A stretch of 64,000 bases of DNA, taken from positions 5,967 through 69,966 of the forward strand of contig JAWKQE010000028.1 of the NCBI GenBank assembly GCA_041390305.1, in the 5' to 3' direction. Positions 4,594 through 21,400 of this stretch are shown one piece after another. Made by a program: the position numbers and the translations under genes. The number at the start of each line of letters is the position of its first letter. The stretch's first letter is position 1. The stretch is from Candidatus Eiseniibacteriota bacterium. GTDB taxonomy: Bacteria; Eisenbacteria; RBG-16-71-46; CAIMUX01. The notes beneath the pieces were generated by a model. That model was not told the DNA's origin. It was given only the letters and a program-made list of their open reading frames with translations, and did not search any database.

Positions 4594-5324
4594 GTCCGTC
4601 CCGACCTCCCGTCGTCGTCACGTGCGAACACGGCGGGAACCGGATTCCGAAGGAGTATCGGGCCCTCTTCGCCGGTGCGGACGATGTTCTCCGTTCCCAT
4701 CGCGGTTGGGATCCCGGCGCGCTCCTCACGGGGCGAGCCCTTGCCCGGTCGACGGACGCCCCGTTCGTCGAGGCCACCGTGACCAGGCTGCTCGTCGACC
4801 TCAACCGCACGAAAGACGGGGCGGGGCGGTTCTCGGAGTTCACGCGAGAGCTCCCGGAGGACGAGCGGCGACGGATCCTGTCCACGTACCACGACCCTCA
4901 CTGGCGATCGGTGCGGCGAGCGATCTCCGCGGCACGCCGAGGGCGCCGGTCGGAACTCGTGATCCACATCGCGTCACACAGCTTCACGGCGCATCCGGGA
5001 CGGATCGGCGGGAAGCCACGTCCAGACCGAAGCTACGAGGTCGGGCTGCTCTACGATCCGAGCCGCCCGGGGGAAAGGTCCTTCGCGGAGCGGTGGCGCC
5101 GTGCGATCCTCTCCAGCGATCCAGAGCTTCGGGTCCGGATGAATCTTCCGTATCGTGGGTGGACGGACGGAATGACCAGTGTGTTTCGAGCGGAGTTCGG
5201 CTCTGGCTATGTTGGGATCGAGCTGGAGTGCAATCAGGAGACGCTCGCTCGTCCCGATTCAGCGACGCGGCTGCGCCGGGTGCTGTCGTCGACGCTGCCG
5301 GAAGTGGTGTCGCGGACATTCTGA
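4590..5324 (+). CDS. N-formylglutamate amidohydrolase family protein
   Basis: [46 protein letters not shown]; GTGA overlap with the upstream gene. Confidence 0.88.
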
Positions 5325-5361
5325 CACGACACGGCTAGCCTGGACTCCGAAGGGAGACGGG

Positions 5362-7326
5362 ATGGCGATGAAGAAGGCGGACAGATCCCGCCAGAAGGCG
5401 AGCACGGATACGAAGCGCTCGTCCGCCAGGGAGATGGCGAGCAAGGAGACGACTCCGATGGCCAAGGCATCGAAAGCGAAGAAGAAGACCACCGGCGCGA
5501 AGGCGAAGGCGGTGAAGTCCAAGTCGAAGGCGAGGAAGTCGGAGCCCGCGAAGCCCAAGGCCGCAAAGACGAAAGCTACGAAGTCCAGTGTCGCGAAGCC
5601 AGCGCCGACGAAGCCTGCGAAGCCAACCACGACCAAAGCGACCAAGCCGACGAAGCCGAAGGTTGCGAAGCCGACTCCTGCGGCACCGACGGCTCAGGCC
5701 GAGCAGAGGACGCAGGACGCCAATGTCGAGCTCGTGGCTTCGACCGAGAACCACGGGCCTGTTCCGCCCCTTCCCGACGTAACGGAGCTCGACCTATCCG
5801 CCTTCTCGAGGCAGATCCGTCTTCGCCCCCTGCAGAAGGGCGACTTCGACGCGATCCTGGATCTCCAGAGGCGGTGCTTTCCGGGGATGAACCCTTGGAA
5901 GCGCGCACAGTTCTTGAGTCAGCTCGAGATCTTCCCGGATGGCCAGATGTGTGTCGAGTACGAGGGCGTGATCGTCGCGTCCTCGTCCAGCCTCATCGTG
6001 ACCTTCTCTGAGTACTCCGCATGGCACGATTGGCAGGAGATCGCGGACGGCGGGTTCATCCGGAATCACGATCCGCTGGGCGACACGCTCTATGGCATCG
6101 AGATCATGGTCCATCCCGAGTACCGGGGCATGAAGCTGGCCCGTCGCCTCTACGACGAGAGGAAGCGGCTCGCCCGTGAGCACAACCTCGAACGGATCAT
6201 GGTCGGAGGTCGGATTCCCGGATACGGGCGCTATTCGGACGACCTCACTGCCCGCGAATACGTCGAGAAGGTCATCGACAAGACGCTCTTCGATCCGGTG
6301 CTCACTCCGCAGATCTCGAACGGGTTTACGCTCAGGCAGCTGGTTCCGGACTATCTCCCCTCGGATCGCCAGTCTCTCGGCTACGCGACGATCCTGGAGT
6401 GGGTGAACCTCGATCACACACCGGAGACGTCGATCGGCTCCCAAGCCGCGAGGATCTGCGTCGTTCAGTACGAAATGCGACGCGTCGAGAGTTTCGAGGA
6501 CTTCGCCGCGCAGTGTGAGTACTTCGTCGATACGGCCTCGGACTATCGGAGCGACTTCGTTCTCTTTCCGGAGCTGATCACGACACAGCTCCTCTCGATC
6601 ATCGATGCTCGCGATCCGGCCGAGTCTGCCCGGCGACTCGCCGAGTACACGCCACAGTATCTCGATCTCTTCGGCGAACTCTCCGTGCGGTACAACGTCA
6701 ACATCATCGGTGGATCCCAGTTCGTCATGGAGGAGGACAAGCTCTACAACGTCGCGTTCCTCTTCCGTCGGGACGGGACGGTGGCGAAGCAGTACAAACT
6801 CCACATCACGCCGGCCGAGCGCCGGTGGTGGGGGGTGGAGCCGGGGGATCGGATGGAGGTCTTCGATACGGATCGGGGGAAGATCGCGATCCAGATCTGC
6901 TACGACGTCGAGTTCCCTGAACTCTCCCGCGTCGCGGCGGCGAAGGGTGCGCGGCTGATCTTCGTTCCGTTCAACACCGACGAACGGCACGGCTACCTCC
7001 GAGTGCGGCACTGCGCACAGGCCCGTTGCATCGAGAACCACGTCTACACGGCCATCGCCGGGTGCGTCGGCAACCTCCCGTTCGTGGACAATGCTGACAT
7101 CCACTATGCGCAGTCGGGTATCTTCACCCCGTCGGACTTCTCGTTCAGTCGGGACGCGATCGCCGCGGAGTGCAGCGCCAATATCGAGACCGTCATCTTC
7201 CACGACCTGGACCTGGGTCTTTTGCCCAAGCACAAGGCCGGCGGCGCGACGCGGAACTGGGACGACCGGAGGGTCGACGTCTATAAAGTCCACTACGAGG
7301 ACGATGTAGACAGGATGGAGATCTGA
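5362..7326 (+). CDS. Bifunctional GNAT acetyltransferase / carbon-nitrogen hydrolase (nitrilase family) with a Lys/Ala/Pro-rich N-terminal tail
   Basis: GNAT motif A ([14 protein letters not shown]); nitrilase triad contexts FPEL (E), QYKLH (K), ICYDVEF (C). Start placed at ATG 5362 after AGGGAG. Confidence 0.88.
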
Positions 7327-7430
7327 GTCATCCTACGCAGGTAGGAGGCCGATGAGGGAGGAAGGGGATCGCTCCCGAGCGGTCCCGACCGCTGAAGCGG
7401 TACTCGTAGCGACCAAGGAGGGAGCCAGGG

Positions 7431-8111
7431 ATGACGCAGCCGATCGAATGGTGGTACGCCGAGGGGAACGAGCAGAAGGGCCCGGTCAACCTCGAGGAGA
7501 TCAAGGAACTGGCTGCCACGGGCGTTGTCGGAGCGGACACACTGGTCTGGCACTCCGGGATGGCCGGATGGACGCCGGCTGGTCGGGTCGCGGAGCTCGG
7601 GCTTCGGCCGACCCCTCCGTCCGCCGGGCTCGGCGCGGACGATTCGCTGGACATCGGTGGCTCGAGCGATCCGTCTCCGCTCGGCTCGTCGTCCGGCGTC
7701 GGGGGCGGAATGGACGAACCGGCGCGACCCGCGCCGCCTCGCTCCAGCTCCGGAGCTGGGTCCTACTCCGGATCCTCGTCCGGGACGGGTGACCTCGGCG
7801 GATTTCCCACCGGCGGGGGCTACGGCCACACCGCGATGCCGATGCGGAACGTTCCGAACAACATGGTCCTCGCGATCCTCTCGACCGTGCTCTGCTGCCT
7901 TCCGCTCGGGATCGCTTCCATCGTGAAGGCCTCCCAGGTGAAGGCGATCGCGGAGTCGGGTGACATCGAGCGGGCCGAGAAGGTGGCCGCGGAGGCCAAG
8001 AAGTGGGCGCTCTGGGCGATCGGTCTCGGGCTGCTCGCACAGATCCTCTACTTCCTTCTCGTCGGCAGCTCGGCGTTCCTCGGCATGATGGATGCGGGGA
8101 AAGATTTCTGA
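7431..8111 (+). CDS. GYF_2 (DUF4339) plus CD225/dispanin membrane protein
   Basis: N-terminal WWY..G..QKGP...LVWHSGMAGW; Ser/Gly linker; C-terminal LAILSTVLCCLPLGIASIVKASQV...AKKW. Confidence 0.85.
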   Translation: MTQPIEWWYAEGNEQKGPVNLEEIKELAATGVVGADTLVWHSGMAGWTPAGRVAELGLRPTPPSAGLGADDSLDIGGSSDPSPLGSSSGVGGGMDEPARPAPPRSSSGAGSYSGSSSGTGDLGGFPTGGGYGHTAMPMRNVPNNMVLAILSTVLCCLPLGIASIVKASQVKAIAESGDIERAEKVAAEAKKWALWAIGLGLLAQILYFLLVGSSAFLGMMDAGKDF

Positions 8112-8118
8112 GACTCCG

Positions 8119-8592
8119 ATGAAGGGACTCGGAGCCCGCATCGGCGCGGTGTCCGCGCCCGGCCTCGCGGACGCGAAGAGGCGAGGGAGGGCGTCCGTCC
8201 TCCTCGTCTCGGCTGGACTCGTCGGAGTTCCACTCGTCGTCGGTTGGTTCATCGCAGTGTTCGGTCGGACAGGGACCGACCTTCTTCCTCCCTGCCTCTT
8301 CCACGAGCTGACCGGCTTTCACTGCACGGGATGCGGCAGCACGCGGGCGCTCCTTGCGTTACTCCACGGGAACATCGCCGAGGCGTGGGGGCAGAATCCG
8401 CTGCTCCTGCTCGTCCTCCCCTGGCTCGCCTACGGAGCTTTCGACTGGGGACTCGTTCGATTCGCGCCATCACACGGGCTTTGGCGCTGGAACGTGCCGG
8501 GCCGGCTCTATTGGGGCTTCGCGGCTCTGGTCATCGCCTTCACGGTGGTACGGAACCTCCCCGCCGTGAGGTTTCTCGGCCCACTTCCCTAG
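8119..8592 (+). CDS. DUF2752 family membrane protein
   Basis: PCLFHELTGFHCTGCGSTRA...A...NPL motif; typical partner of CD225 genes. Confidence 0.85.
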   Translation: MKGLGARIGAVSAPGLADAKRRGRASVLLVSAGLVGVPLVVGWFIAVFGRTGTDLLPPCLFHELTGFHCTGCGSTRALLALLHGNIAEAWGQNPLLLLVLPWLAYGAFDWGLVRFAPSHGLWRWNVPGRLYWGFAALVIAFTVVRNLPAVRFLGPLP

Positions 8593-8671
8593 CGGGGGCG
8601 CGAGGTTCGGCTCCTCTACCGCGTCTGCCAGTGTGGTTCACGCGTGGCACAATACGAGGGTGCGGTAGGAA

Positions 8672-8699
8672 TCGCCGCGCAGACGTCGCCGCGCAGACG
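8672..8699. repeat. Perfect 14-bp tandem duplication (TCGCCGCGCAGACG x2)
   Basis: Read directly in the gap between convergent genes. Confidence 0.8.
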
Positions 8700-8734
8700 G
8701 CCGTGCGCTCTGCATCCCAGGCGTCCGCGGTTTC

Positions 8735-9268
8735 TCAGTGACCGTTTCCCGCCAAGGTGTCCCGGCAGTCCGTACAGAACTCGTCTCTCTTGAGGTCGAT
8801 CTCTTCCGCGACCGCGGAGAAGTGCATCGCGCAATCGGGATCCGCGCAGTGGACCAGGCCGAGCAGGTGCCCGGCCTCGTGCAGAACCTCTCGGCGCATC
8901 CTGGATTCCAGGAGGTCCGGGTCGTCGGGGAGTCCGTACAGGGTCGGCCTCAGTCGATGAATCGATACGATTCCCGCGGGGCCGTGAAGTCTCGCTTCCC
9001 CGAACACGAACGTGAAGATCGCCGAGTAGAGATCGACATCGGCAAGACCGAGTACGAGACTGTCCGACTCGCCTGCAACCGTTTCCAGCGGGGGAAGCAG
9101 TCGTCGGCAGTCGAACTGCGCGCGCCGCGGCTCGTACGCACCCTGGAGGTCGAGTGTGTCGGGATGGATCGACACGGGGAGACTCGTCGCCTGCGCGAGG
9201 AACGTCGCCGCCTTCTCGAGAAGACCTGGCGGAAGGGCACCGACGGCGACCAGTGTCCATCCCCGCAC
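8735..9268 (-). CDS. Archaemetzincin (peptidase M54) zinc metalloprotease
   Basis: HEAGHLLGLVHC..PDCAMHFS...D.K...FC..C metzincin and Cys-Zn motifs; FVFGEA motif. Confidence 0.9.
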   Translation of the reverse strand: MRGWTLVAVGALPPGLLEKAATFLAQATSLPVSIHPDTLDLQGAYEPRRAQFDCRRLLPPLETVAGESDSLVLGLADVDLYSAIFTFVFGEARLHGPAGIVSIHRLRPTLYGLPDDPDLLESRMRREVLHEAGHLLGLVHCADPDCAMHFSAVAEEIDLKRDEFCTDCRDTLAGNGH

Positions 9269-9272
9269 GAAG

Positions 9273-10739
9273 CTAGCCCTTGGTCAGGTGGAGCGTCTTG
9301 ATCTTGTTGTAGACCGTCGTCCGGTCGACCCCCAGCACCCGCGCCGTCTTCGAGATATTCCAGTCCGTGGCGTTGAGCACGCGTAGGATGTGATCCCGTT
9401 CGACCTCGGAGAGCGCACGTAACTCGGCGGGCGTGACACCGTCGTCCTCTTCCTCGATCGCTTCCGGTTCCGTCTCCTGGGTCCCGTTCAGCTTCGAGGT
9501 CGTGCCGTTCAGCGTCGAGTTCAGGATGGCGGCCTTCCCGTTCTTCTCCACCTCGATCGGCAGATCACCCACCCGAAGTACGTTCTCGTGGCGTCCACGG
9601 AGAACGACGAGTGCACGTTCGAGAGCGTTGGCCAGCTCGCGCACGTTCCCCGGCCACTCGTAGGACTCCATTACCTCCATCGCAGAGGGGTCGATCTCCG
9701 GGACGGGTTGGTTCATGGAGCGGGCGACCCGTTCGAGAAGTGCCCGCGAGAGCTGGGGGATGTCGCCGCACCGCTCGCGAAGCGGTGGAAGGTGGATGTT
9801 GAATACGTTGAGGCGATAGTAGAGGTCCTCACGGAAGTTGCCGGCCCGAACCTCTGTCATGAGGTCCCGGTTCGTGGCGGCGATGAGCCGGAAGTCGGCT
9901 CTCACTGCTTTCGTGTCGCCGAGCCGCGTGATCTGCTTCTCCTCGATGACGCGGAGGAGTTCGACCTGGAGTTTGGGGGAGATCTCGCCGATCTCGTCGA
10001 GGAAGAGCGTGCCGCCGTCGGCGAGCTCGAACTTCCCCTTGTGCCGGTAGTGCGCTCCGGTGAACGCGCCGCGCTCGTGCCCGAAGAGTTCGCTCTCCAG
10101 CGTTCCTTCGGGGAGCGCGCCACAGTTGACCACGACGAGCGGCATGTACGCGCGTGGCGACATGGCGTGAATGGCCCGTGCGACGAGCTCCTTCCCTGTA
10201 CCTGACTCACCGGTGACGAGCACGCTCGTCTCCGTGGGTGCGACCGTTTCGATCAGTGCACACGCGCGCAGAATTGCGGGGCTGGTGCCGAGAATCGGCT
10301 GCGGCTTGACCACGGCCGCGAGGTGGTCACGGAGGTGCCGGTTCTCCTGTTCCAGGTCCCGATGCTCGGCGATGTTCCGGATGAGGTGCGTGAGCTGCTC
10401 CGGGTCGAACGGCTTCGTGACGTAGTCGTAGGCGCCGTCCTTGAGCGCCTGGACCGCGGTGTCGACCGAGGCGAACGCCGTCATGATGATGACCCGGGTC
10501 GTCGGCGATGCCTCCCGGACTCGGCGCAGCAGCTCCAGCCCGTCCATGCCCGGCATCTTGATGTCGACGAGAGCGGCATCCCAGGGACTCTCCTTCAGGA
10601 TGCGGAGTGCTTCCCGCGCATCGGGCGCCGATTGCACCGTGTGCCCGTCCTCCTCGAACCAGCTGGAGAGCGAGTCGCGGACGACGTTCTCATCGTCGAC
10701 GACGAGGAGCCGCAGTTTCGGCAGGGTCTTCTGCGTCAT
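9273..10739 (-). CDS. NtrC-family sigma-54 response regulator (REC-AAA+-Fis HTH)
   Basis: VVDDE, DIKMPGMDG, GESGTGKE, ESELFGHERGAFTGA, LFLDEIGE and a C-terminal HTH. Start moved to MTQK at 10739, overlapping the kinase stop. Confidence 0.93.
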   Translation of the reverse strand: MTQKTLPKLRLLVVDDENVVRDSLSSWFEEDGHTVQSAPDAREALRILKESPWDAALVDIKMPGMDGLELLRRVREASPTTRVIIMTAFASVDTAVQALKDGAYDYVTKPFDPEQLTHLIRNIAEHRDLEQENRHLRDHLAAVVKPQPILGTSPAILRACALIETVAPTETSVLVTGESGTGKELVARAIHAMSPRAYMPLVVVNCGALPEGTLESELFGHERGAFTGAHYRHKGKFELADGGTLFLDEIGEISPKLQVELLRVIEEKQITRLGDTKAVRADFRLIAATNRDLMTEVRAGNFREDLYYRLNVFNIHLPPLRERCGDIPQLSRALLERVARSMNQPVPEIDPSAMEVMESYEWPGNVRELANALERALVVLRGRHENVLRVGDLPIEVEKNGKAAILNSTLNGTTSKLNGTQETEPEAIEEEDDGVTPAELRALSEVERDHILRVLNATDWNISKTARVLGVDRTTVYNKIKTLHLTKG

Positions 10740-12733
10740 GATCGATCCCTTTCGGACAAGGGGGCGCTCCGGGCGGGCGACTTCCCGGCGGAGGACTGCC
10801 GTGCGTTCGGGACGCGATTCTCGGCACCGTCCCGATCCGGCACGCCGTCCCGTGGCGCGTCGTTGTCGGGGCGCGCGCCGCGAATCCACAGCTCACTCTC
10901 CGGAGTCGCGGGCACAGCGTTTGCCGGGTCCGGCCCATGGAGCGGGAACTGGAGACAGAAGGTGGTGCCGTGTCCCACCTGGGACTGCACGTCGACGGTG
11001 CCGCCGTGACGCTGGACGATTCCGTACGTGACGGCGAGCCCGAGCCCGGTCCCCGCGCCTTCGCTCTTCGTCGAGAAGAAAGGCTCGAAGATTCGTGCGC
11101 GGATCTCCTCGGGGATGCCGATTCCGGAGTCCTGGATCTCGATCGTGATCACTCCGTCCGGAGCTCCGACGTGTCCCGATCCCTTTGGCGCCGGCTTCTT
11201 TGCGAAGCGGGTGCGAACCGTGAGGGTGCCGCCGTCCGGCATCGCGTCGAGCGCGTTCAGGATCATGGCGAGGAGTGCCTGTTGGAACTCTGATCGGTCA
11301 CACACGAGTTCCGGAATCCCCGGCTCCAGCTCTCGCACCAGGGAGACGTTGCCGAGGTCCGCGCGGTGCTGCACCAGCTTCACCGCGCGCTCGACGATCG
11401 CATTCACGTCTGTCGGTTCGTGTTCCAGGATACCCTGGCGGGAGAAGAGGAGGAGGTTCCGCACGATGTCGCCGCAGCGCGCCGTTTCGGCTTCGATCGT
11501 CGCCAAGGTCTCGTCCACTTCCTTGGCCTTGGTCTCCCTCTCGGCTGCGTCGGACGCGATCAGCTTCGGAAGACGTCTGCGGACCAGCTTCGCGTAGACG
11601 AGCACGCCTGCCAGCGGGTTGTTGATCTCGTGTGCGACGATGGCTGCGAGCTTTCCGAGCGACGCCATCTTCTCCGTGAAGACCATCTGGTCGCGCGTAC
11701 GCTCCAACTCCTTCGTCTTTTCCTCGATGCGTGCTTCCAAGGTCTCGTTCCAGTTCTCCAGCTCGAGCTGGGCGGTCCCGAGCCGCTCCGACATCACGTT
11801 GAATGCGGATGCGAGCTCTCCGGCCTCCGCCGGCAAGTTGTTCGGAATGCGGTGGGTATGGTCCCCTGAGGCAAGGGTGTGGATCCCACGGAGTACGGTG
11901 TGGAGCGGACGGTGGACGGTCCGCCAGGCCAGCCAGCCGATGACGCCGGAGATGAGGAGTACGGTCGCGATCGCGACCGCGATCATCTGCTTCCGTGCGT
12001 CGACGATGGCGGCTTCCAGTTCCGCGGTGGAGAGTTCGAGGTCCAGGATTCCGAGGACTGCCTGGTTCGGCGGGTGGTAGTGACAGCTCGCTGTGGAGCA
12101 CGAGGTCTCGTTGAGCACCGGAATGCCGAGGCCGAGTGTCTGCTCGCCGCTTGGCAGGGAGTACTGGACCAGCCCATCCCGCAGGCCATCCGGAGCATGC
12201 ATCCGACCGCCGGAGTGGCACCCCTGGCACACCTGGCTCTGCATGTCGCTCGTCGAACCGATCTCGGCCTCGTCCTGGGAGAAGACGACGACCCCCTTCG
12301 GGTTGATGAGACGGAGTGCGCGAACGCTCTCCCTGCGGCCGATGTTCTCCAGGATCTGCTCGAGGTGTCGACGGTCGTTCTCCAGCATCGAGAAGTGCGT
12401 GCTGGAGATGATCGTCTCGGCCATGCCGACGGCGCGTTCCTCCAGCATGTTCATGAGATGGGCGCGGTGGAGTCCCAGTGCGAGCCAGTCACTGGCGCCG
12501 AGTAGACCGACCAGAGTGCAGACGAGGATCAGGACCATCCGCCATCCGAGCGATCTGGGTATCTCGCGGGCGGCTCGGCCGAACGCACTCGGCGCGCCGA
12601 AGGCCCCAGTTCCGCTGCCGCGGGTGGCGGGGTTGTTGCTGTCGGACCCGTTCATCGGACCGGTTCCGGAACCGCTGCCGGGTTCCTTGTCGAAGGTAGC
12701 CATGGTGCGCACCTCCGAGGAGTACATCGTCAC
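10736..12733 (-). CDS. Membrane sensor histidine kinase (HAMP-HisKA-HATPase) with c-type heme motifs in the periplasmic domain
   Basis: Two TM helices, HAMP, AHEINNPL H-box, LNALDA, DSGIGI, EPFFSTK, GTGLGL; periplasmic CQGCH and CSTASCH. Start may be 12703. Confidence 0.9.
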   Translation of the reverse strand: MTMYSSEVRTMATFDKEPGSGSGTGPMNGSDSNNPATRGSGTGAFGAPSAFGRAAREIPRSLGWRMVLILVCTLVGLLGASDWLALGLHRAHLMNMLEERAVGMAETIISSTHFSMLENDRRHLEQILENIGRRESVRALRLINPKGVVVFSQDEAEIGSTSDMQSQVCQGCHSGGRMHAPDGLRDGLVQYSLPSGEQTLGLGIPVLNETSCSTASCHYHPPNQAVLGILDLELSTAELEAAIVDARKQMIAVAIATVLLISGVIGWLAWRTVHRPLHTVLRGIHTLASGDHTHRIPNNLPAEAGELASAFNVMSERLGTAQLELENWNETLEARIEEKTKELERTRDQMVFTEKMASLGKLAAIVAHEINNPLAGVLVYAKLVRRRLPKLIASDAAERETKAKEVDETLATIEAETARCGDIVRNLLLFSRQGILEHEPTDVNAIVERAVKLVQHRADLGNVSLVRELEPGIPELVCDRSEFQQALLAMILNALDAMPDGGTLTVRTRFAKKPAPKGSGHVGAPDGVITIEIQDSGIGIPEEIRARIFEPFFSTKSEGAGTGLGLAVTYGIVQRHGGTVDVQSQVGHGTTFCLQFPLHGPDPANAVPATPESELWIRGARPDNDAPRDGVPDRDGAENRVPNARQSSAGKSPARSAPLSERDRS

Positions 12734-12974
12734 GATTCCGTTGCGGCGTGACGTTTTCTCTGAAGGTGCATCCGGGGCGGTCGGTTCTGGCGGAGTTCGG
12801 TCAGGATCTACAACCCGAAGCTGCAGCTCAGCAACTCACTTCCCCGAGACCGGAACGGGGAGCCCACTCTCTCGAGCGGACCCCCGTGTCGGCGATGCAC
12901 TCACATCCGAGACTCAGGATGCCTCCGAACGTCCCTCGCGTCACATCAGGCGAAGTACGTACTCGGGCGGAGAG

Positions 12975-14181
12975 TTACGAACGGACCATCTCCTTGGAGA
13001 CCCAACCATGCCGGAGACGTCGTCCCACCTCCGACTTCCAGGTCCTCTGCCTTTCTTCCTCGAGCGTGTCCCTCTCGAAGACCGGAAGGTAACGCGCCGC
13101 CAGGTAGAAGGCGGTGACGCCGACCGTCACGATCATGAGAGTCACGGCGACTTCGGTCCACGCAGGGATGTAGGTGTAGCCTGAGACGACCTCGAAGCCG
13201 GTCACGCTCACGTTCAGTCGGTTGATGATGAACCCGAGCAGAGCGAGCTGGGCGGCGTGGTAGAGCCAGCGGCTGTTCCGCGTAGATCTTCGTGCTGTTG
13301 AAGAGCACGATCGGCAGCGCGAACCCGGCCAGGATCTCGAGGATGAAGAACGCGCCTGCCCGATCGAGCGGCCAGAGCGTCGTCAGCACTCCCCGGTGGA
13401 TGAGGTCCGCGAACCGGACGACCAGGTAGAGCACCATGACCACGGACGCGACCTTCGCCGCGTTCTGCAGCACGTCCGCCTCGATCTCCCGTCCAAAGGC
13501 CCGCGCACTGAGGTTGGACTCGATGATCGTCATGACGAGACCGACCGCAATGGCGGAGAGGAAGAACAGAAGAGGCAGGAACGGCGTCCACCAGAGCTCG
13601 TGGAGCCGGCCCGGCACGAGGAGGAAGAGGCTGCCGAGTGACGACTGGTGCAGCATCGAGAGACACACCGCCGCCACCGTGAGCGGGAAGGTGAGCTTGT
13701 GCGCGACCTTGGTCGAGCGACGCATCTTCAGCTTCTCGAAAACCATGGCCGACGCTTCCGCGGCCAGCACCGTGGTGTAGAGCGTGACGCACCAGGCGAC
13801 CTCGAACATGACCGAGTGCGGGTTCCACATCACCATCGGATGCCAGATCCGCCAAGGTAGACCGAGGTCGAAGATGAGTCCGCCCACGACGAGCAGATAG
13901 CCGATGAAGGCGGTGAGAACGGCTGGACGGGCCAGCGGGCGATACTTCTCGATTCGCAGGATGTAGACCATGGCGCTGATCGTGAAGCCGCCCGCGGCCA
14001 GTCCGACCCCGCAGACTACGTCGAACCCGACCCAGAGACCCCAGGGGAAAGTGTCACTGAGGTTCGTGCTCGCACCAAGTCCTTGGGTGAAGCGAAGGAA
14101 GGTCGCGTAGAGTCCGGAGACGAGACAGATGAGTCCGATGAGCCGGAACATGGTGAACTTGCGAAGGAATCGATCGGTCAT
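12975..14181 (-). CDS. NrfD/HybB/HmcC-type integral membrane subunit, frameshifted near 13278
   Basis: TNLSD.FPWGLW..FD...G, YRPLARPA...AF.GY, SVMFEV..CV..Y and MLHQSSLG. The family C-terminus (NSRWLYHAAQLALLGFIINRLNV...Y.P.W.E...) continues in another frame to the stop at 12975; one extra G restores the frame. Confidence 0.85.
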
Positions 14182-15071
14182 CACACACCTCCCTTCCCCG
14201 GGTCACTCGGATCGATCCCGGCTCCAACGCCTTCCTCTTTCAGCTCGAAGCTCTCTGTTCTGTCGTCACCATTCTTCCGGATGCGTTCCGCCGTGAGGGC
14301 CATGCGTCGCCGGATGATCCAGTTGACCGCGAGGAGGCCCGTACCAGCGGTGCCGACCGCGGTCGGAATCTGGGAGAGCACCACCCACGTCTTGTGCGGG
14401 AGGGACTCGTTCGGGATGCGTGGATCGAAGGCCGCCATCACCTCGGGCGGTCCGATGACGAGCACCGACGTTCCGCCGGCTTCGTTCGTACCGTAGACCT
14501 GAGGCGCGTAGCTGTCCGGGTCCTCCGAGATCCGGCGCCACGCTTCGGCGAGGAGTTCTGAGCGCTCTCCGGAGACGGTCGCTTCGGCCGGGCAGGCTTC
14601 GGAGCATGCCGTGGGCTGGCCGTTGGCGAGGCGATGCGGACAGAGCTGACACTTGCGAACGCGCGGAGTGACGGAGTTCCACTCGTAGCGCGGGACACTG
14701 AACGGGCACGCCACCATGCAGTAGCGACACCCGATGCACTTCTCGAAGTCGTACTCGACTGGGCCGATCGACGTCTTGTGGAGAGCACCGACCGGGCACG
14801 CGGATGCGCAGCTCGGCTCGAGGCAGTGCATGCACATCCGGCGCAGGTAAACGTCCCCGACTTCTTCCACGACACAGTAGTCGGTGGCAGAGAGCGCGAG
14901 CCCTTCCGTCTCATCCGACTCTGGGAGGCCGTTCTCCGCTCGACAGGCTTCCATGCAGGCTCCGCAGCCTACGCAGAGGTTCGCGTCGAACAAGATCCCG
15001 TACATCTTTCCACCTCCTCCTCCCTCGCCGTGTTCCCCTGGGCGAGACCGTTCTGTTTCTTTGTCACTCAT
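14181..15071 (-). CDS. HybA/HmcB/NrfC-type 4x[4Fe-4S] protein with C-terminal membrane anchor
   Basis: CVGCGACMEAC, CMHCLEPSCASACP, CIGCRYCMVACP, CQLC...CSEACP; hydrophobic C-terminal helix. Confidence 0.92.
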   Translation of the reverse strand: MSDKETERSRPGEHGEGGGGGKMYGILFDANLCVGCGACMEACRAENGLPESDETEGLALSATDYCVVEEVGDVYLRRMCMHCLEPSCASACPVGALHKTSIGPVEYDFEKCIGCRYCMVACPFSVPRYEWNSVTPRVRKCQLCPHRLANGQPTACSEACPAEATVSGERSELLAEAWRRISEDPDSYAPQVYGTNEAGGTSVLVIGPPEVMAAFDPRIPNESLPHKTWVVLSQIPTAVGTAGTGLLAVNWIIRRRMALTAERIRKNGDDRTESFELKEEGVGAGIDPSDPGKGGV

Positions 15072-15753
15072 GGTGGCGCGCCTTGAGGTGGAGGAACTCC
15101 TCCGTCAGCGACGACCACTCTTCCGGATCCAGCGTGCCGCCGATGTCCTCGACCGGCTGGCCACCGTCCTGGATGACGCTTCCGCTCGCCATGCAGAGGC
15201 GATAGCGGAACCGATCGTTGGCGTCCTGCATCCAGTGCTCCGCGAGGCTCCCGGTGAGGAGGTTCGAGAGGTCCTGGAAGAGGCGGGGTGACTTCACCTT
15301 GAAGAGCCAACCCTTGCCGAAGTTGTCCTTGAAGGCCGCGCCCTTGTCGCCGCGGGCGGCCGGGTTCACGCCGACGATCTCTCCACCGACCGGCGAGAGG
15401 AGGTGGGCCGTCTGGCCGTTGCGCTTCACGTGGATCGCTTCCGAGCCCTGGTGGACGTGCATGCCGACCTCGGGAAGGTCGAACTTCGCGTCCTGTCCGA
15501 TGAGGCGACGGGCGAAGTCGTCGACACCGACATACGCCGTGTCTTCAGAGACCCAGTGCACCCAGGTATGGCCAGGGTGATAGGCGAGGGCCGGAGCGAG
15601 CTTGAATCCACCGACTGTCTTGGAATCTACGTTCACGAGCGCTTTCTGGAGCGCTTCACCCTCCGCGAGCAGGACGACATTGCGACGTCTTTCACGGAGC
15701 AGATCCACGGTCACGAAGACCGCGAACGTCAGCACTGCGAGCAGGACCACCAT
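15064..15753 (-). CDS. Membrane-anchored glycine-cleavage-H-like (barrel-sandwich hybrid) protein lacking the lipoyl lysine
   Basis: AYHPGHTW, VGVDDFA..L.G, SPVGGEIV.VN, GKGWL motifs; N-terminal hydrophobic helix; extra C-terminal helical domain. Confidence 0.85.
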   Translation of the reverse strand: MVVLLAVLTFAVFVTVDLLRERRRNVVLLAEGEALQKALVNVDSKTVGGFKLAPALAYHPGHTWVHWVSEDTAYVGVDDFARRLIGQDAKFDLPEVGMHVHQGSEAIHVKRNGQTAHLLSPVGGEIVGVNPAARGDKGAAFKDNFGKGWLFKVKSPRLFQDLSNLLTGSLAEHWMQDANDRFRYRLCMASGSVIQDGGQPVEDIGGTLDPEEWSSLTEEFLHLKARHHE

Positions 15754-16200
15754 GATTCACCTCCGAGTTAGATCTCTTCCGTTTCGTTCGCGGGGCCCCG
15801 GTGGCGGTGTTGCCGTTGTCGGAGTTCCCGGCGTTTCCGGGGTGAGAAACGTCACGCAGCGTGCCAATGGGCGGGACGCGATCCGTGATTCGTGCAGGTG
15901 ACGGGGACACTTGGGGATGCAGTGGCGCGACTGACGTGGAGTGCCGGTCCACGGTCGAGTGCGGCACTGTGGAGGTCTTCGACGGATTCTGCTGTGGTGA
16001 GGCTCGGCAGGTGGGTGAAGTCGTTTCGTTCGAGGGCGTTTGGAGGGCAGATCCGGCGATTGTCGGGGTTCTCCACAACCGTCGAGGTTCTCGACAGCCG
16101 TTCGCGTGGTCCGGATCGTGCTGGAGGTTTTTCGTGGGCGCCGAAATGACGACGGGGAGACCTGACGAGAAACTATGGCACGATACAGCTCGGGAGCCGA

Positions 16201-16243
16201 TACACTGTACGTAGTGCACGAAACGTACATTACGTACAGTGTA
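16201..16243. promoter_or_regulatory. Perfect 13-bp inverted repeat, probable toxin-antitoxin operator
   Basis: TACACTGTACGTA (16201-16213), a 17-bp spacer, then TACGTACAGTGTA (16231-16243), directly before the antitoxin RBS (GGAGG). Confidence 0.7.
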
Positions 16244-16255
16244 GGAGGTGCCCGG

Positions 16256-16510
16256 ATGGTCCGATTCAGCGTGACGGAGGCGCGAGACAAGCTCTCGGAG
16301 CTATGCAACCGGGTCTCCTACCAAGGAGAGAGGATCGTGCTGGATCGGCGAGGGAAGGCGGTCGCTGTCCTCATCTCGCTCGAGGACCTCGAAGTTCTGG
16401 AGCGTGCAGAGGACGCGGCGGACCTTCAGTCGGCCAGGGAAGCCGTCGCTGAATCCGAGACCGAGGGGACCGTCTCCCTCGATGATCTTCGCGAGGAACT
16501 CGGGCTCTGA
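16256..16510 (+). CDS. Phd/YefM family antitoxin
   Basis: SVTEARDKLSELCNRV...GERIVL.RRGK.VAVLISLEDLE; acidic C-terminus. Confidence 0.9.
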   Translation: MVRFSVTEARDKLSELCNRVSYQGERIVLDRRGKAVAVLISLEDLEVLERAEDAADLQSAREAVAESETEGTVSLDDLREELGL

Positions 16511-16764
16511 AACACAGAGTCGAGTTCACCCCGCGGGCCGCGAGGGATCTGAGAGGGCTCGACCGACGAGAACAACGGCGGCTCCTCGCGCGCATCGAGA
16601 GGCTCGCCGAGGAGCCCCGGCCGAACGGTGCGAGGAAGATCGAGGGCGAGGATGGCCTCTACCGAGTCCGTCAGGGTGTGTTCCGGATCCTGTACCGCGT
16701 CGAGGACGCGCGGCTCCTCGTTCTCGTGATTCGGATCAGGCACCGTCAGGATGTATACCGCTAG
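16507..16764 (+). CDS. RelE/StbE family toxin with CTG start (not in the ORF track)
   Basis: Manual translation: (M)KHRVEFTPRAARDLRGLDRREQRRLLARIERLAEEPRPNGARKIEGEDGLYRVRQGVFRILYRVEDARLLVLVIRIRHRQDVYR*. GAGGA lies 9 nt upstream and the start overlaps the antitoxin stop (CTGA). Confidence 0.88.
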   Translation: MKHRVEFTPRAARDLRGLDRREQRRLLARIERLAEEPRPNGARKIEGEDGLYRVRQGVFRILYRVEDARLLVLVIRIRHRQDVYR

Positions 16765-17914: not shown

Positions 17915-18502
17915 ATGACGAGCGACTCCAACATCACGCAGCTCCTCGAGGAAGCGAACCGCGGGGACACCGGGGCGCTCGATGCGCTTCTCGAGGCGGT
18001 GTACAGAGAGCTCAGCGTGATGGCCGACCGGCGGATCCGGGCTCAGCGGGAGGAGGGGAAGCCGGTCACGCTCGACCCGACCGCGCTCGTCCACGAGACG
18101 TATCTGAAGCTGGCCCAGCAGCGGAGCGAACTCCGCAACCGTCGCCACTTCTTCGCGATCGCGTCCCGGATCATGACCCGCGTCCTCCAGGACCACCTCC
18201 GGAACCGGACGGCGGCGAAGCGAGGGGGGCATCAGGTCCAGGTGACCCTGAGCCGGATCGCCGACCTGCTCGAGTCTCCGGATCTCGAGGCATCGCAGCG
18301 GCGGGTCGAACGGATCCTCGCCGCGATCGAGCAGTTGGATGACGAATCGCCCCGACGGGCGGAGCTCGCCCGGCTCCGGATCCTCTGGGGGCTGGAACTC
18401 ACCGAGATCGCCGAGACGCTCCAGGTGTCGCTCGCGACGGTGAAGCGGGACTGGCGGTTCGTCCGCGCCTGGCTCGCGGAGCAGGTGGAAGCTCCCGAGT
18501 GA
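17915..18502 (+). CDS. ECF-type sigma factor (TIGR02999/PF07638-like)
   Basis: ITQLL....GD..A...L...VY.EL, TLDPTALVHETYLKL, RRHFFAIA.R.M.R.L.D, EIAE.L.VS..TVKRDWRFVRAWL. Confidence 0.9.
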   Translation: MTSDSNITQLLEEANRGDTGALDALLEAVYRELSVMADRRIRAQREEGKPVTLDPTALVHETYLKLAQQRSELRNRRHFFAIASRIMTRVLQDHLRNRTAAKRGGHQVQVTLSRIADLLESPDLEASQRRVERILAAIEQLDDESPRRAELARLRILWGLELTEIAETLQVSLATVKRDWRFVRAWLAEQVEAPE

Positions 18503-21400
18503 CCGACCGCTTCGAGAGGCTCGCGGAGCTCTTCGAACGCTGTTCCGATCGCTCCCCGGAAGAGGTCGCCCGCATTCTGGACGAGGAGTGCGCCGACGAT
18601 CCCGATCTTCGCGCCGCGGTCGAAACTCTGCTCGCCCGCGACGCGGAGCCCGAAGTGCTGGAGAGCGCGGTTCGGGACGTCGGGCACGTGTTCGAGGATT
18701 CCCGTCACGACCACCACGTCGCGCCGGAAGACACACCCGAGGCGATCGGTCGCTACGAGATCATCGGAGTGCTGGGCTACGGCGGGATGGGAACGGTCTT
18801 CTCCGCGCGGGACCCGGATCTCGGAAGGCTCGTTGCGCTGAAGCTGCTGCCGCGCGGATGGGAGCGCGAACCGTCGCTACGAGCAGTTCCGTCGCGAAGC
18901 AGCTTCCAGCAGCCTACGCACCCTAACATCGCCGTCCTCTACAGCCTCGAGGAGAGTGGTGGGCCGCGCGTTCCTCACTATGGAGCACATCCTCGGCGAG
19001 ACCTTGGGGCACCGTTTGGAACGCAAACCGCCGACGCTCTCCGAGTCGATCTCCTGGGGGCGGCAGATCGCGGATGCTCTCCAGATGGCGCACGCGAACG
19101 GTGTCACCCATCGCGATCTCAAGCCGGCGAACGTGATGATCAGTGATGGTGGCTCGCTCAAGGTGCTCGACTTCGGGCTCGCGGTAGTCGGAGTCGACGC
19201 GGGCCGTGGCACCTCGTCGAGTTCCGGCCTCCCGGCCCCGGAGACGAAGGGGGGCACTACTCCGGCCGGAAGTCCCGGATACATCAGTCCGGAGCAGCTC
19301 CGCGGCGGAAAGGCGACGGCCGCGGCAGACGTCTGGGGCTGGGGCTGCGTTCTGTTCGAGTGCCTGACCGGCACCGAGGCGTTCCCTGGGGAGACACCGC
19401 TCGAGCGGGTTACGAACACGCTCGAGCGCCGGCTGGACGCTTCGCGGTTTCCGGCGGAGGTCCCGGAGAAGTTGGCGGAACTCGTCCTGTCGTGTCTCTC
19501 GCCGGACCCGAAAGACCGGCCGAGTTCCATCGACGAGCTCCAGGAGCGGCTGCGCGAAGTATCACGTCGCTCGAGCGATCGACCGTCATCGCGTGTGCGA
19601 ACGTACTCGGTCGGCCTGGTGCTCGCGCTCCTGGTTGCGGTTGTGTTCCTCTCGTGGCGCGCTGCGGAGGACGAGCGCGCGCGTGGAGGCGCGTCGTCGT
19701 CCGGCACGAGTAGCGCTTCCTCCACTTCTCCACGTCGCGTGACCTTCTCCGGGTTCGTCTGGGGATTCGATCTCGCGGGGTCGGGAGATCGGGTCGCGTG
19801 CGTCACGAACCCCGGCGACATCGTCGTCGTGGACCTGGGCACCGATGCGGAGCGGGTGCTGCGGAACGATCCGACGCTCCAGGCGGTGTCGTGGTCGCCC
19901 GACGGAACCGAGCTCCTCGCGTACAGCCTCGGCAAGGAGAAGGACGGTTCCTTCCTTCTCTCGACTTCGACAGGAGAGATGAGACCGGTCGGGCCGCCGA
20001 ACTTCCAGGGCCGTTGCTGGTCACCGGACGGAACGCGGATTCTCGGACCGATCTCGAAGACGCACGTCGCACAAGGGCCGGTCTATCTGTACGACGTGGC
20101 GTCGGACTCCGTGACCGCAGTTCCGTTGCCGGACGATCTCGCCCACGTCGAGTACGACTGGTCGGCCCGAAACGGTTGGATCCTCGTCCTCGGAACCCGT
20201 CCGGGAGAGTCGCGAGGCGCATGGATGGTACCCGAGTCGGGCGGCGAGGCGATTCAGGTCGGCGGAGCGGATACCGATCGGGCACGCTGGGCGCCGGATG
20301 GACAGCATCTCCTCGTCGTGGATCGTCCTTCGGACAGGACGGTCCTCAGCGCACTCACGTTGTCGCCGCAGCTGCTCGCTGGCGAGGTCGATCGGCTCGT
20401 GTCCCCGGGAACGCGGATCTCGCATTCGACGCGAGTGCTCGAACTCCCCACGACCACGACGGGGTTCCGGGTCGCACGCGACGGACGGACGATTGCGTTG
20501 CTCGGACAGATTCCTCAGTCGACGCTCTGGCGCCTGGTCCGGCGCCCGGATGGCTCTGGGTTCGACTCGACGCCGATTTGGGGCGGGACCGTGCTCGCCG
20601 GCGGACCGAAGATCCGGCCCGGCGGGGAGGAGGTCGCGTTCCTCGCGGGTCCCCTCGAGACGACCAAGATCCTGCGCCTCCCTCTCGCCGGTGGCGAGCC
20701 CGTGTCGATGACGGATGTCGGGCTGGGGAAAGCGTTCCTCGCCTGGTCTCCCGACGGGACGGAACTGGCTTTCGGAGCCGACGACGAGGGGCGGGAGCAG
20801 CTGCGGATCGCGTCGACGATCGATGGCAGTGATCGGCCGGTGCCGGGCGCGGAGGGGCGCGCGTACCTCGAGTGGCTCGAGGCGGACCGCATCCTCTATC
20901 ACTCGCTTCAGGACGACAACCTGAACTTCCGGGTCGTGTCTCCGAGTGGAAACGACCAGCGCCCGCTCTTCGACCCGCCGCGGGAAGGGACACTGTTCCA
21001 GGTCGCCGCGTCCCACTCCGGCGATTGGCTCGCCGTGGCGGGCGCGAGGGGAGGTCGCACCGAGATCGACGTGTGGCTGGTTTCGCTCGACTCTCCGGAC
21101 GATAGGCTGCTCTTCGACGGCACGGCGGTTCCGATCACCTGGTCCGAGGACGACGAGTGGGTCTACCTCGTGCGCGAGACTCGAGAGTCACGGTTCGTCG
21201 GCGAGTCCGTCGGGGAGGTTCTGCGAGTGCGCGTTTCAGACGGGACCGTCGAGCCGGTCGTCGCGCTGCCACCCGGCGATCTGCGGCGTTGGACCGACGT
21301 CGACATCTCTCCGGATGGCAGGACGGTTGTGTGCGCACTGAGCCAGGATCAGAAGGACGTCTGGATCGCGGACATTCCGAGAGGGGTGCTCGCTCCCTGA
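18499..21400 (+). CDS. Ser/Thr protein kinase with TM helix and PD40/TolB-like beta-propeller; frameshifted around 18880-18963
   Basis: LGYGGMGTV, VALK and HPNI are in the first frame; MEH, HRDLKPAN, DFGLA, GSPGYISPEQ and DVW..G are in the second; repeated WSPDG motifs; GTGA overlap with the sigma gene. Confidence 0.85.

Follow-up and report, generated by a model that had tools for sequence, protein, structure and literature searches.

A conserved six-gene cassette combines an HmcBC-like iron-sulfur/NrfD pair with a predicted haem sensor kinase, a sigma-54 activator and an archaemetzincin

A stretch of 64,000 nucleotides from a Candidatus Eiseniibacteriota bacterium (assembly GCA_041390305.1, contig JAWKQE010000028.1, forward-strand positions 5,967 to 69,966; hereafter the window) carries six minus-strand genes at positions 8735-15753, which encode a GcvH-like protein (GcvHL), an iron-sulfur (FeS) protein, an NrfD-type membrane subunit, a sensor histidine kinase with haem attachment motifs, an NtrC-type response regulator and an archaemetzincin of family M54. 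Here we report that this six-gene arrangement recurs in other phyla far beyond chance, and we propose, with a probability of about one half, that it encodes a haem-sensed, self-induced electron module of the Hmc/Cbc4 type, which would connect the quinone pool with the periplasm and is accompanied by cytoplasmic accessory proteins. The cassette is apparently undescribed, as literature searches for the gene combination, for NrfD-like clusters and for archaemetzincins returned no description of the gene set. The genes are, from first to last:

15064-15753, minus strand: GcvHL, 229 amino acids; PF01597, E-value 2.5e-15; first gene
14181-15071, minus strand: FeS protein with four [4Fe-4S] clusters, HmcB/HybA-like; NCBIfam HmcB E-value 1.9e-62, HybA E-value 3e-56
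12975-14184, minus strand: NrfD/HybB/HmcC-like membrane subunit with about ten helices; frame broken near 13284
10736-12733, minus strand: sensor histidine kinase, HAMP-HisKA-HATPase, with CQGCH and CSTASCH motifs
9273-10739, minus strand: NtrC-type regulator, REC-sigma54 AAA+-HTH_8, with GAFTGA; its start overlaps the stop of the kinase gene (ATGA)
8735-9268, minus strand: archaemetzincin (M54) zinc protease; NF033823 score 147.8 versus a cut-off of 145; last gene

Conservation of the cassette

A pattern scan employing one genome per species confirmed at least 389 relatives of GcvHL, and 79 loci from other genomes were fetched. All six genes are present in the order of the window in 48 of these loci, and a further 22 keep the order as far as the contig end. 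The phylum labels of the records comprise Acidobacteriota, Krumholzibacteriota, Planctomycetota/Phycisphaerae, Gemmatimonadota, Binatia and Bacteroidota in addition to Eisenbacteria, i.e. at least seven, and close relatives carry the label Candidatus Eisenbacteria. The set is closed on both sides: when all open reading frames in the 10-kb flanks of the 79 loci were clustered, no further gene was found in more than 14 loci, and those flank genes that did turn up are lineage-local, such as Mla, AcrB and DegT in Acidoferrales, or a gene that five Krumholzibacteria loci contain for a NapC-like cytochrome. A preliminary description of the window, made from the sequence alone, had named two observations that would speak against its interpretation, namely a hydrogenase, molybdoenzyme or multihaem subunit consistently encoded in related clusters, or a lack of co-conservation of the six genes. 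Neither was found.

The cassette is spread over hundreds of uncultured species, and it links three parts that have so far been orphans: modules of the HybAB/HmcBC type without a partner, GcvH-fold proteins without the lipoyl lysine, and bacterial archaemetzincins. The system is testable, because these parts are encoded along with their own predicted haem sensor and sigma-54 switch.

A predicted sigma-54 promoter and putative enhancer sites precede the first gene

Four candidate regulatory elements were located upstream of GcvHL:

16080-16096, minus strand: putative enhancer (upstream activating sequence) site 1, a 17-bp palindrome TGTCGAG-AAC-CTCGACG, about 215-230 nucleotides upstream of the -24 element; conserved in Eisenbacteria relatives
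16061-16077, minus strand: putative, degenerate enhancer site 2, TGTGGAGAACCCCGACA, with two mismatches to site 1
15968-15984, minus strand: putative, degenerate enhancer site 3, CGTCGAAGACCTCCACA, a palindrome of the same type, conserved in relatives
15852-15866, minus strand: predicted sigma-54-type promoter, TGGCACG-CTGC-GTGA, in the block TTGGCACGCTGCGTGA, about 100 nucleotides before the GcvHL start

The promoter block has a perfect -24 element (TGGCAC) and an atypical -12 element with GTGA for TTGC, and the three palindromic sites lie upstream of it. It is invariant in loci L080 and L081 and kept in L084. Canonical -24/-12 elements occur 60-110 nucleotides upstream of GcvHL in 42 of the 79 loci, compared to 0.107 expected per 400 bp, which corresponds to about five times the background. 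Of 78 loci from other phyla, 22 have the palindrome core GT[CTG]GA-N5-TC[CAG]AC ahead of the first gene, and the density of this core upstream of GcvHL (0.77 per kb) exceeds that elsewhere in the same loci (0.047 per kb) by a factor of 16. Within the 6.4-Mb genome the window belongs to, the group of three sites is the only such cluster. A genome search for an external regulon yielded no further palindrome cluster, and the lone identical site, on contig C38, is located inside a coding region.

The regulator encoded by the fifth gene possesses full REC, AAA+ and HTH_8 domains as well as GAFTGA, which is also present in 57 of 58 orthologues, and judged by these sequence features it is a complete sigma-54 enhancer-binding protein. 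The genome contains two rpoN genes. In the simplest reading, the operon appears to activate itself, i.e. it is subject to positive autoregulation and its own products are the output. As the operon has a predicted sigma-54 promoter and putative enhancer sites of its own, the FeS/NrfD pair may be a regulated output, rather than or besides an input of the sensor.

The kinase carries a periplasmic sensor with two haem motifs

The predicted layout of the kinase comprises a transmembrane helix, a periplasmic PAS/Cache domain containing CQGCH and CSTASCH, a second transmembrane helix, and HAMP, HisKA and HATPase domains. The two haem-c motifs, at a distance of 43 residues, have the conserved forms CxxCH and Cx2-4CH, the second of them in an invariant N-x3-C...CH-x-H context, while the first is lost in one acidobacterial subgroup. 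An AlphaFold2 model of the sensor (predicted local distance difference test, pLDDT, 83.3) shows two long membrane helices flanking a PAS/Cache fold, and its neighbours in Foldseek include WalK, DctB, KinD, CitA and the haem-c PAS sensors GSU0935 and GSU0582. By sequence and model, the sensor is a PAS/Cache domain that lies in the periplasm and has two attachment motifs for c-type haem; haem binding is predicted for it.

In the six-gene form, the kinase is the sole predicted haem protein encoded. This would suit a dedicated quinone-pool sensor, in which FeS protein and NrfD serve solely to connect menaquinol with the haems of the kinase, the haem domain of the kinase stands in for HmcA or CbcS, and the actual outputs are genes elsewhere. 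The resemblance of the pair to HmcB and HmcC, which have a cytochrome as partner, and the tight co-conservation of the genes also fit such a sensor. However, five loci and two whole genomes keep GcvHL, kinase, regulator and archaemetzincin without FeS protein and NrfD, and the kinase is therefore not strictly dependent on an FeS/NrfD wire. Moreover, the only cluster of putative enhancer sites in the genome lies upstream of the operon itself with no external regulon visible, and variants of the cassette carry a separate cytochrome c3. We consider the dedicated sensor a possible but doubtful alternative to the self-induced electron module. The preliminary description had likewise proposed that the genes sense the quinone pool or relay its electrons instead of forming a respiratory enzyme. 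This proposal is partly supported: the co-conservation and the lack of a consistent catalytic subunit agree with it, but the operon's own predicted promoter, by which the pair may be output, and the loci devoid of FeS/NrfD qualify it. The quinone module may supply the sensor with input, may be what the sensor controls, or both.

Topology of the FeS/NrfD pair

The 16 cysteines of the FeS protein that make up four [4Fe-4S] motifs are invariant in all 59 aligned orthologues. The protein begins about ten residues ahead of the first cluster motif and has no twin-arginine translocation (Tat) signal. At its C-terminus it has a membrane helix followed by a positive tail, RRR (...AVGTAGTGLLAVNWIIRRRM...), and as far as can be read from the sequence only, the same pattern is found in variants that do bear a Tat signal. 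Clear Tat signals are present on the FeS proteins of the sister variants L092, L094, L095 and L071. Among these, L092 has a cytochrome c3 gene between nrfD and the kinase gene, and the N-terminal anchor of its GcvHL is a weak match to the HmcD family PF28260. A link between Tat signal and cytochrome gene was considered and rejected, since L094 and L095 encode Tat-bearing FeS proteins without a cytochrome.

The membrane subunit matches PF03916 with a score of 60.5 (cut-off 25.8), and ten hydrophobic segments were counted by eye on an intact orthologue. It has the canonical topology with the N-terminus inside and no haem ligands. Across 48 orthologues, its periplasmic loops are more conserved than the cytoplasmic ones (0.71 versus 0.55). 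Because the tail charges of the FeS protein equal those of the Tat-bearing variants and the periplasmic loops of NrfD are the conserved ones, we lean to a periplasmic FeS protein; from these sequence features, its cluster domain is probably located in the periplasm.

The lack of a Tat signal in 66 of 67 FeS orthologues, with too little sequence ahead of the first cluster motif to contain one in many loci, would be accounted for if the pair faced inwards. In that case the FeS protein would stay in the cytoplasm, held by its tail anchor, and together with the GcvHL domain, which is cytoplasmic as well, pass electrons from a cytoplasmic donor to NrfD; a cassette spreading between phyla ought, moreover, to be self-sufficient. 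This arrangement is unlikely, however. The charges behind the C-terminal helix of the FeS protein (RR, then acidic) match those of the Tat-bearing sisters and imply the same orientation, NrfD has its canonical orientation with the conserved loops in the periplasm, and GcvHL lacks a conserved lysine or cysteine that could carry a redox group.

No catalytic subunit accompanies the pair

The absence of a catalytic subunit, which the preliminary description had pointed out, was confirmed: none is encoded in the flanks within the window, and the surroundings of the 79 loci contain no conserved one. Multihaem HmcA and HmcE/HmcF are likewise missing from the window and not conserved in these loci. 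The accompanying expectation that NrfC/NrfD pairs normally move electrons between quinol and a catalytic subunit needs qualification, as the closest relatives, HmcBC and CbcTU, normally work without one and have a c-type cytochrome as partner. Sister variants do encode cytochromes, i.e. the cytochrome c3 of L092 and, in the vicinity of some Krumholzibacteria loci, NapC-like proteins. It had further been suggested that the GcvH-like protein takes the position of the catalytic subunit, but its domain is cytoplasmic according to the positive-inside rule, whereas the docking site of catalytic subunits is the FeS protein in the periplasm.

Could the pair belong to a hydrogenase encoded elsewhere? 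Another contig of the same genome carries a complete hybO-hybA-hybB-hybC-hybD operon (C5:130978-136534; positions 4978-10534 of locus L090), the HybA of which has the Tat signal MADRRSFLK. The FeS protein of the window is 43% identical to this HybA, and its NrfD is 40% identical to the corresponding HybB. Since the hydrogenase has its own Tat-bearing HybA and its own HybB, the pair in the window is a paralogue and not a stray piece, which rules out a split-off hydrogenase part. Co-occurrence of the cassette with group-1 hydrogenases was also considered and rejected, as only about 15 of 40 genomes with the cassette encode a full-length group-1 [NiFe] large subunit.

An ordinary respiratory enzyme would nevertheless be conceivable if a catalytic partner encoded elsewhere, a hydrogenase or molybdoenzyme exported by Tat, carried the signal-less FeS protein across the membrane. 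Pairs of a signal-less, tail-anchored FeS protein and HybB are known, albeit only beside a Tat-bearing FeFe hydrogenase, and hitchhiking has been proposed for them (bioRxiv 10.1101/2023.11.02.564894). The genome encodes one [NiFe] hydrogenase and three molybdopterin proteins as candidates. On the other hand, no gene for a Tat-bearing partner is linked to the cassette in any of the 79 loci, and both the hydrogenase's own HybA and HybB and the patchy presence of group-1 enzymes in cassette genomes argue against this assignment, which we rate as quite improbable.

GcvHL and the archaemetzincin as proposed cytoplasmic accessory proteins

In an AlphaFold2 model (pLDDT 85.8), the single N-terminal membrane helix of GcvHL is followed by an H-protein barrel and, at the C-terminus, by a helical extension. 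Foldseek matched the model to the H protein of T. thermophilus (1onl_A) with an E-value of 1.9e-10, 31% identity and a template modelling score (TM-score) of 0.89, normalised to the target length. At the position of the lipoyl lysine (ESVK motif, eight residues before a conserved proline), the protein has Gly113, and an alignment of 24 family members contains no conserved lysine or cysteine. Scores remain below the equivalog cut-offs for GcvH (TIGR00527, 58.3 versus 115.85; NF002270, 62.8 versus 117). As the charges RERRR follow the membrane helix, the barrel should lie in the cytoplasm by the positive-inside rule (N-terminus out, C-terminus in). Relatives of GcvHL include soluble cysteine-rich variants and REC-GcvH fusions, which fit with a cytoplasmic role of GcvHL in protein interaction.

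A loop of the C-terminal extension, for which the confidence of the model is low, has a conserved QDGG. The motif xDGG recurs in all GcvH-like paralogues, within their C-terminal loop; some of these proteins are soluble and have an N-terminal C-x12-C-x6-C-x2-C. It also recurs in the tail (LGLTMADGG) of a small membrane protein encoded at positions 8677-8940 of L092 as well as in L094 and L096. No other convincing protein with this motif was found in the genome the window belongs to. The spacing of the GcvHL gene from the FeS gene differs between lineages: in the Acidoferrales loci (L029-L079) a gap of 400-700 nucleotides without a conserved open reading frame separates them, and other Terriglobia loci encode a second GcvH-like paralogue with a membrane anchor in the gap.

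The archaemetzincin has HEAGHLLGLVH and a Cys4 site formed by two C..C pairs, and it matches PDB 2x7m with an E-value of 8.5e-23. By sequence it keeps the zinc site and the catalytic glutamate. The strict HExxHxxGxxH motif is present in 30 of 56 orthologues; six examples from the other 26 read HELGH-x5-H with the glycine replaced. As the protein has no signal peptide, it is taken to be cytoplasmic. We know of no member of the archaemetzincins with a known substrate, and the roles of GcvHL and the archaemetzincin in the cassette are inferred only.

If protease and GcvHL were part of the signal path, the cassette might form a new type of signalling machine spanning the membrane. Here, FeS protein and NrfD would set the redox state of the kinase haems from menaquinone, and the GcvHL anchored to the complex would be read or cut at QDGG by the archaemetzincin. 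This is a rather improbable scheme, but if true, electron flux through the quinone pool would control both sigma-54 transcription and proteolysis, and archaemetzincins as well as lysine-less GcvH proteins would receive a first function. The scheme would also require that a ferredoxin with four clusters can reach the periplasm independently of a Tat signal.

Gene borders, the nrfD frameshift and neighbouring genes

Family searches bore out the positions and identities that the preliminary description had given for the six genes, with two amendments. Three of the five gene junctions overlap and not four, namely GcvHL/FeS, FeS/NrfD and kinase/regulator (ATGA). The first of these holds only when the FeS gene starts at 15071 as in the window; in relatives the start is called at the position corresponding to 15005. 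Regulator and archaemetzincin genes are spaced by 4 nucleotides, and a gap of about 240 nucleotides separates nrfD from the kinase gene. No sigma-70 promoters or terminators were found within the operon on the coding strand, and an Rfam scan of the window gave 0 matches.

Secondly, nrfD had been taken as a single open frame. Comparison with intact orthologues of 405 amino acids from four other assemblies, at 91% nucleotide identity, revealed one extra T (+1 nucleotide) at about position 13284, behind which the last approximately 100 residues run on in a second frame to 12975. A second frameshift, 5 kb away, splits a plus-strand gene at 18499-21400 for a Ser/Thr kinase with a C-terminal beta-propeller into the frames 18499-19146 and 18956-21400, while its orthologue in L080 is one protein of 1010 amino acids. 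In view of this nearby frameshift, the break in nrfD is read as an assembly indel, and an assembly error is the most likely cause. The other conceivable cause is decay, with frameshift and weak -12 element being real and the operon a pseudogene cluster in this genome. Although the extra T sits outside any long homopolymer and the -12 element reads GTGA, as would suit decay, the five other genes are intact and 75-98% identical to those of relatives, relatives with an intact nrfD also retain the GTGA block, and the second frameshift suggests assembly indels. We therefore regard decay as very improbable.

As a separate observation, nrfD is also broken in another metagenome contig (L097, 10505-11702), where frames of 319 and 73 amino acids result from a break after helix 8, in the same region as the frameshift of the window.

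Downstream of the cassette, plus-strand genes for a GYF_2/CD225 membrane protein and a DUF2752 protein (7431-8592) converge on its end, and both genes also lie behind the cassette in the Eisenbacteria relatives L082-L084. Upstream and divergent from it, a PhdYeFM-type antitoxin is called on the plus strand at 16175-16764; the 5' end of this open reading frame includes a perfect 10-bp inverted repeat, ACTGTACGTA...TACGTACAGT, at 16204-16240.

A proposed haem-sensed, self-induced electron module

Returning to the self-induced module of the Hmc/Cbc4 type, we propose the following course of events. The haems of the kinase would report the periplasmic redox state or a haem ligand. The kinase would then phosphorylate the activator, which might bind the palindromes and drive sigma-54-dependent transcription of all six genes, resulting in positive autoregulation. 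FeS protein and NrfD would form a minimal module like HmcBC, HybAB or CbcTU that passes electrons between menaquinol and c-type haems in the periplasm. GcvHL could sit in the same membrane, its cofactor-less barrel on the cytoplasmic side, and act in docking or regulation, and the cytoplasmic archaemetzincin might process or remove a component, for which the conserved and flexible QDGG loop of GcvHL is a possible site.

Several observations weigh against this proposal. A Tat signal (RRxF) was detected in only 1 of 67 FeS relatives and nothing in the cassette carries one, although the proposal calls for a four-cluster FeS protein in the periplasm; the loss of the signal across the clade in a ferredoxin that otherwise looks periplasmic constitutes a concrete puzzle in protein export. 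The -12 element of the window is GTGA and not TTGC. Finally, the cassette has been seen solely in metagenome-assembled genomes, with all cluster members being metagenomic, and a search for a cultured host led to a single isolate, Malonomonas rubra, which matches the sensor domain and has this type of sensor without the cassette.

Comparison with known systems

The FeS protein and the membrane subunit match HmcB and HmcC best among NCBIfam models, i.e. subunits of the Hmc complex (HmcABCDEF) of Desulfovibrio vulgaris. In both systems, a tail-anchored FeS protein with four clusters is paired with a cofactor-less NrfD subunit of ten helices, and in sister variants the likeness extends to the GcvHL anchor, with its weak match to the HmcD family PF28260, and to the presence of a c3-type cytochrome. 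However, HmcA, HmcE and HmcF are missing, the scores are well under the equivalog cut-offs (211 versus 420 and 272 versus 550), and the FeS protein of the cassette has no Tat signal. In addition, the cassette contains a GcvH-fold domain, a predicted haem kinase, a sigma-54 activator and an M54 protease. HybA and HybB of E. coli hydrogenase-2 represent the same type of FeS/NrfD pair, but the cassette has no linked hydrogenase subunits and its FeS protein bears no Tat signal.

Judging from its described architecture, Cbc4 (CbcSTU) of Geobacter sulfurreducens is also similar. It is a quinol:cytochrome c module consisting of a cytochrome c, a protein with four [4Fe-4S] clusters and an NrfD-like subunit, with no classical catalytic subunit (bioRxiv 10.1101/2025.04.14.648717). 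The cassette shares the four-cluster protein and NrfD-like subunit without a catalytic subunit, but in its six-gene form has no separate cytochrome. The predicted regulation resembles that of cbcBA in Geobacter, a quinone oxidoreductase operon with a sigma-54 promoter, which is switched on by the response regulator BccR as the redox potential falls (bioRxiv 10.1101/2021.04.15.440034). In contrast to the Geobacter systems, regulator and kinase are encoded inside the operon here, and GcvHL and M54 have no Geobacter counterpart.

The sensor domain compares to the Geobacter chemoreceptors GSU0935 (3b42) and GSU0582 (3b47), which likewise have a periplasmic PAS/Cache domain with CxxCH and were found at Foldseek ranks 2 and 26 with E-values of 5.6e-6 and 5.1e-4. 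Identity is about 20% and global superposition is poor, with a TM-score of about 0.45 (target-length normalised). Furthermore, the kinase has two motifs, the second being a Cx2-4CH of variable spacing, and its output is a histidine kinase rather than a chemoreceptor. GcvHL shares the barrel-sandwich fold of GcvH and of LbpA from sHdr sulfur oxidation, but differs by lack of the lipoyl lysine, by its membrane anchor and by a C-terminal extension of 60 residues. The protease agrees with the archaemetzincins (AmzA; PDB 2x7m and 3zvs) in scoring above the NCBIfam cut-off and in having HExxHxxGxxH and the Cys4 zinc site; unlike them it is bacterial and the fixed last gene of a two-component operon.

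Taken together, membership in Hmc, in Hyb or in GcvH proper fails on defining features, and none of HmcBC, HybAB and CbcTU comes with a lysine-less H-protein fold, a haem kinase in the operon or an archaemetzincin, all of which are combined in the cassette.

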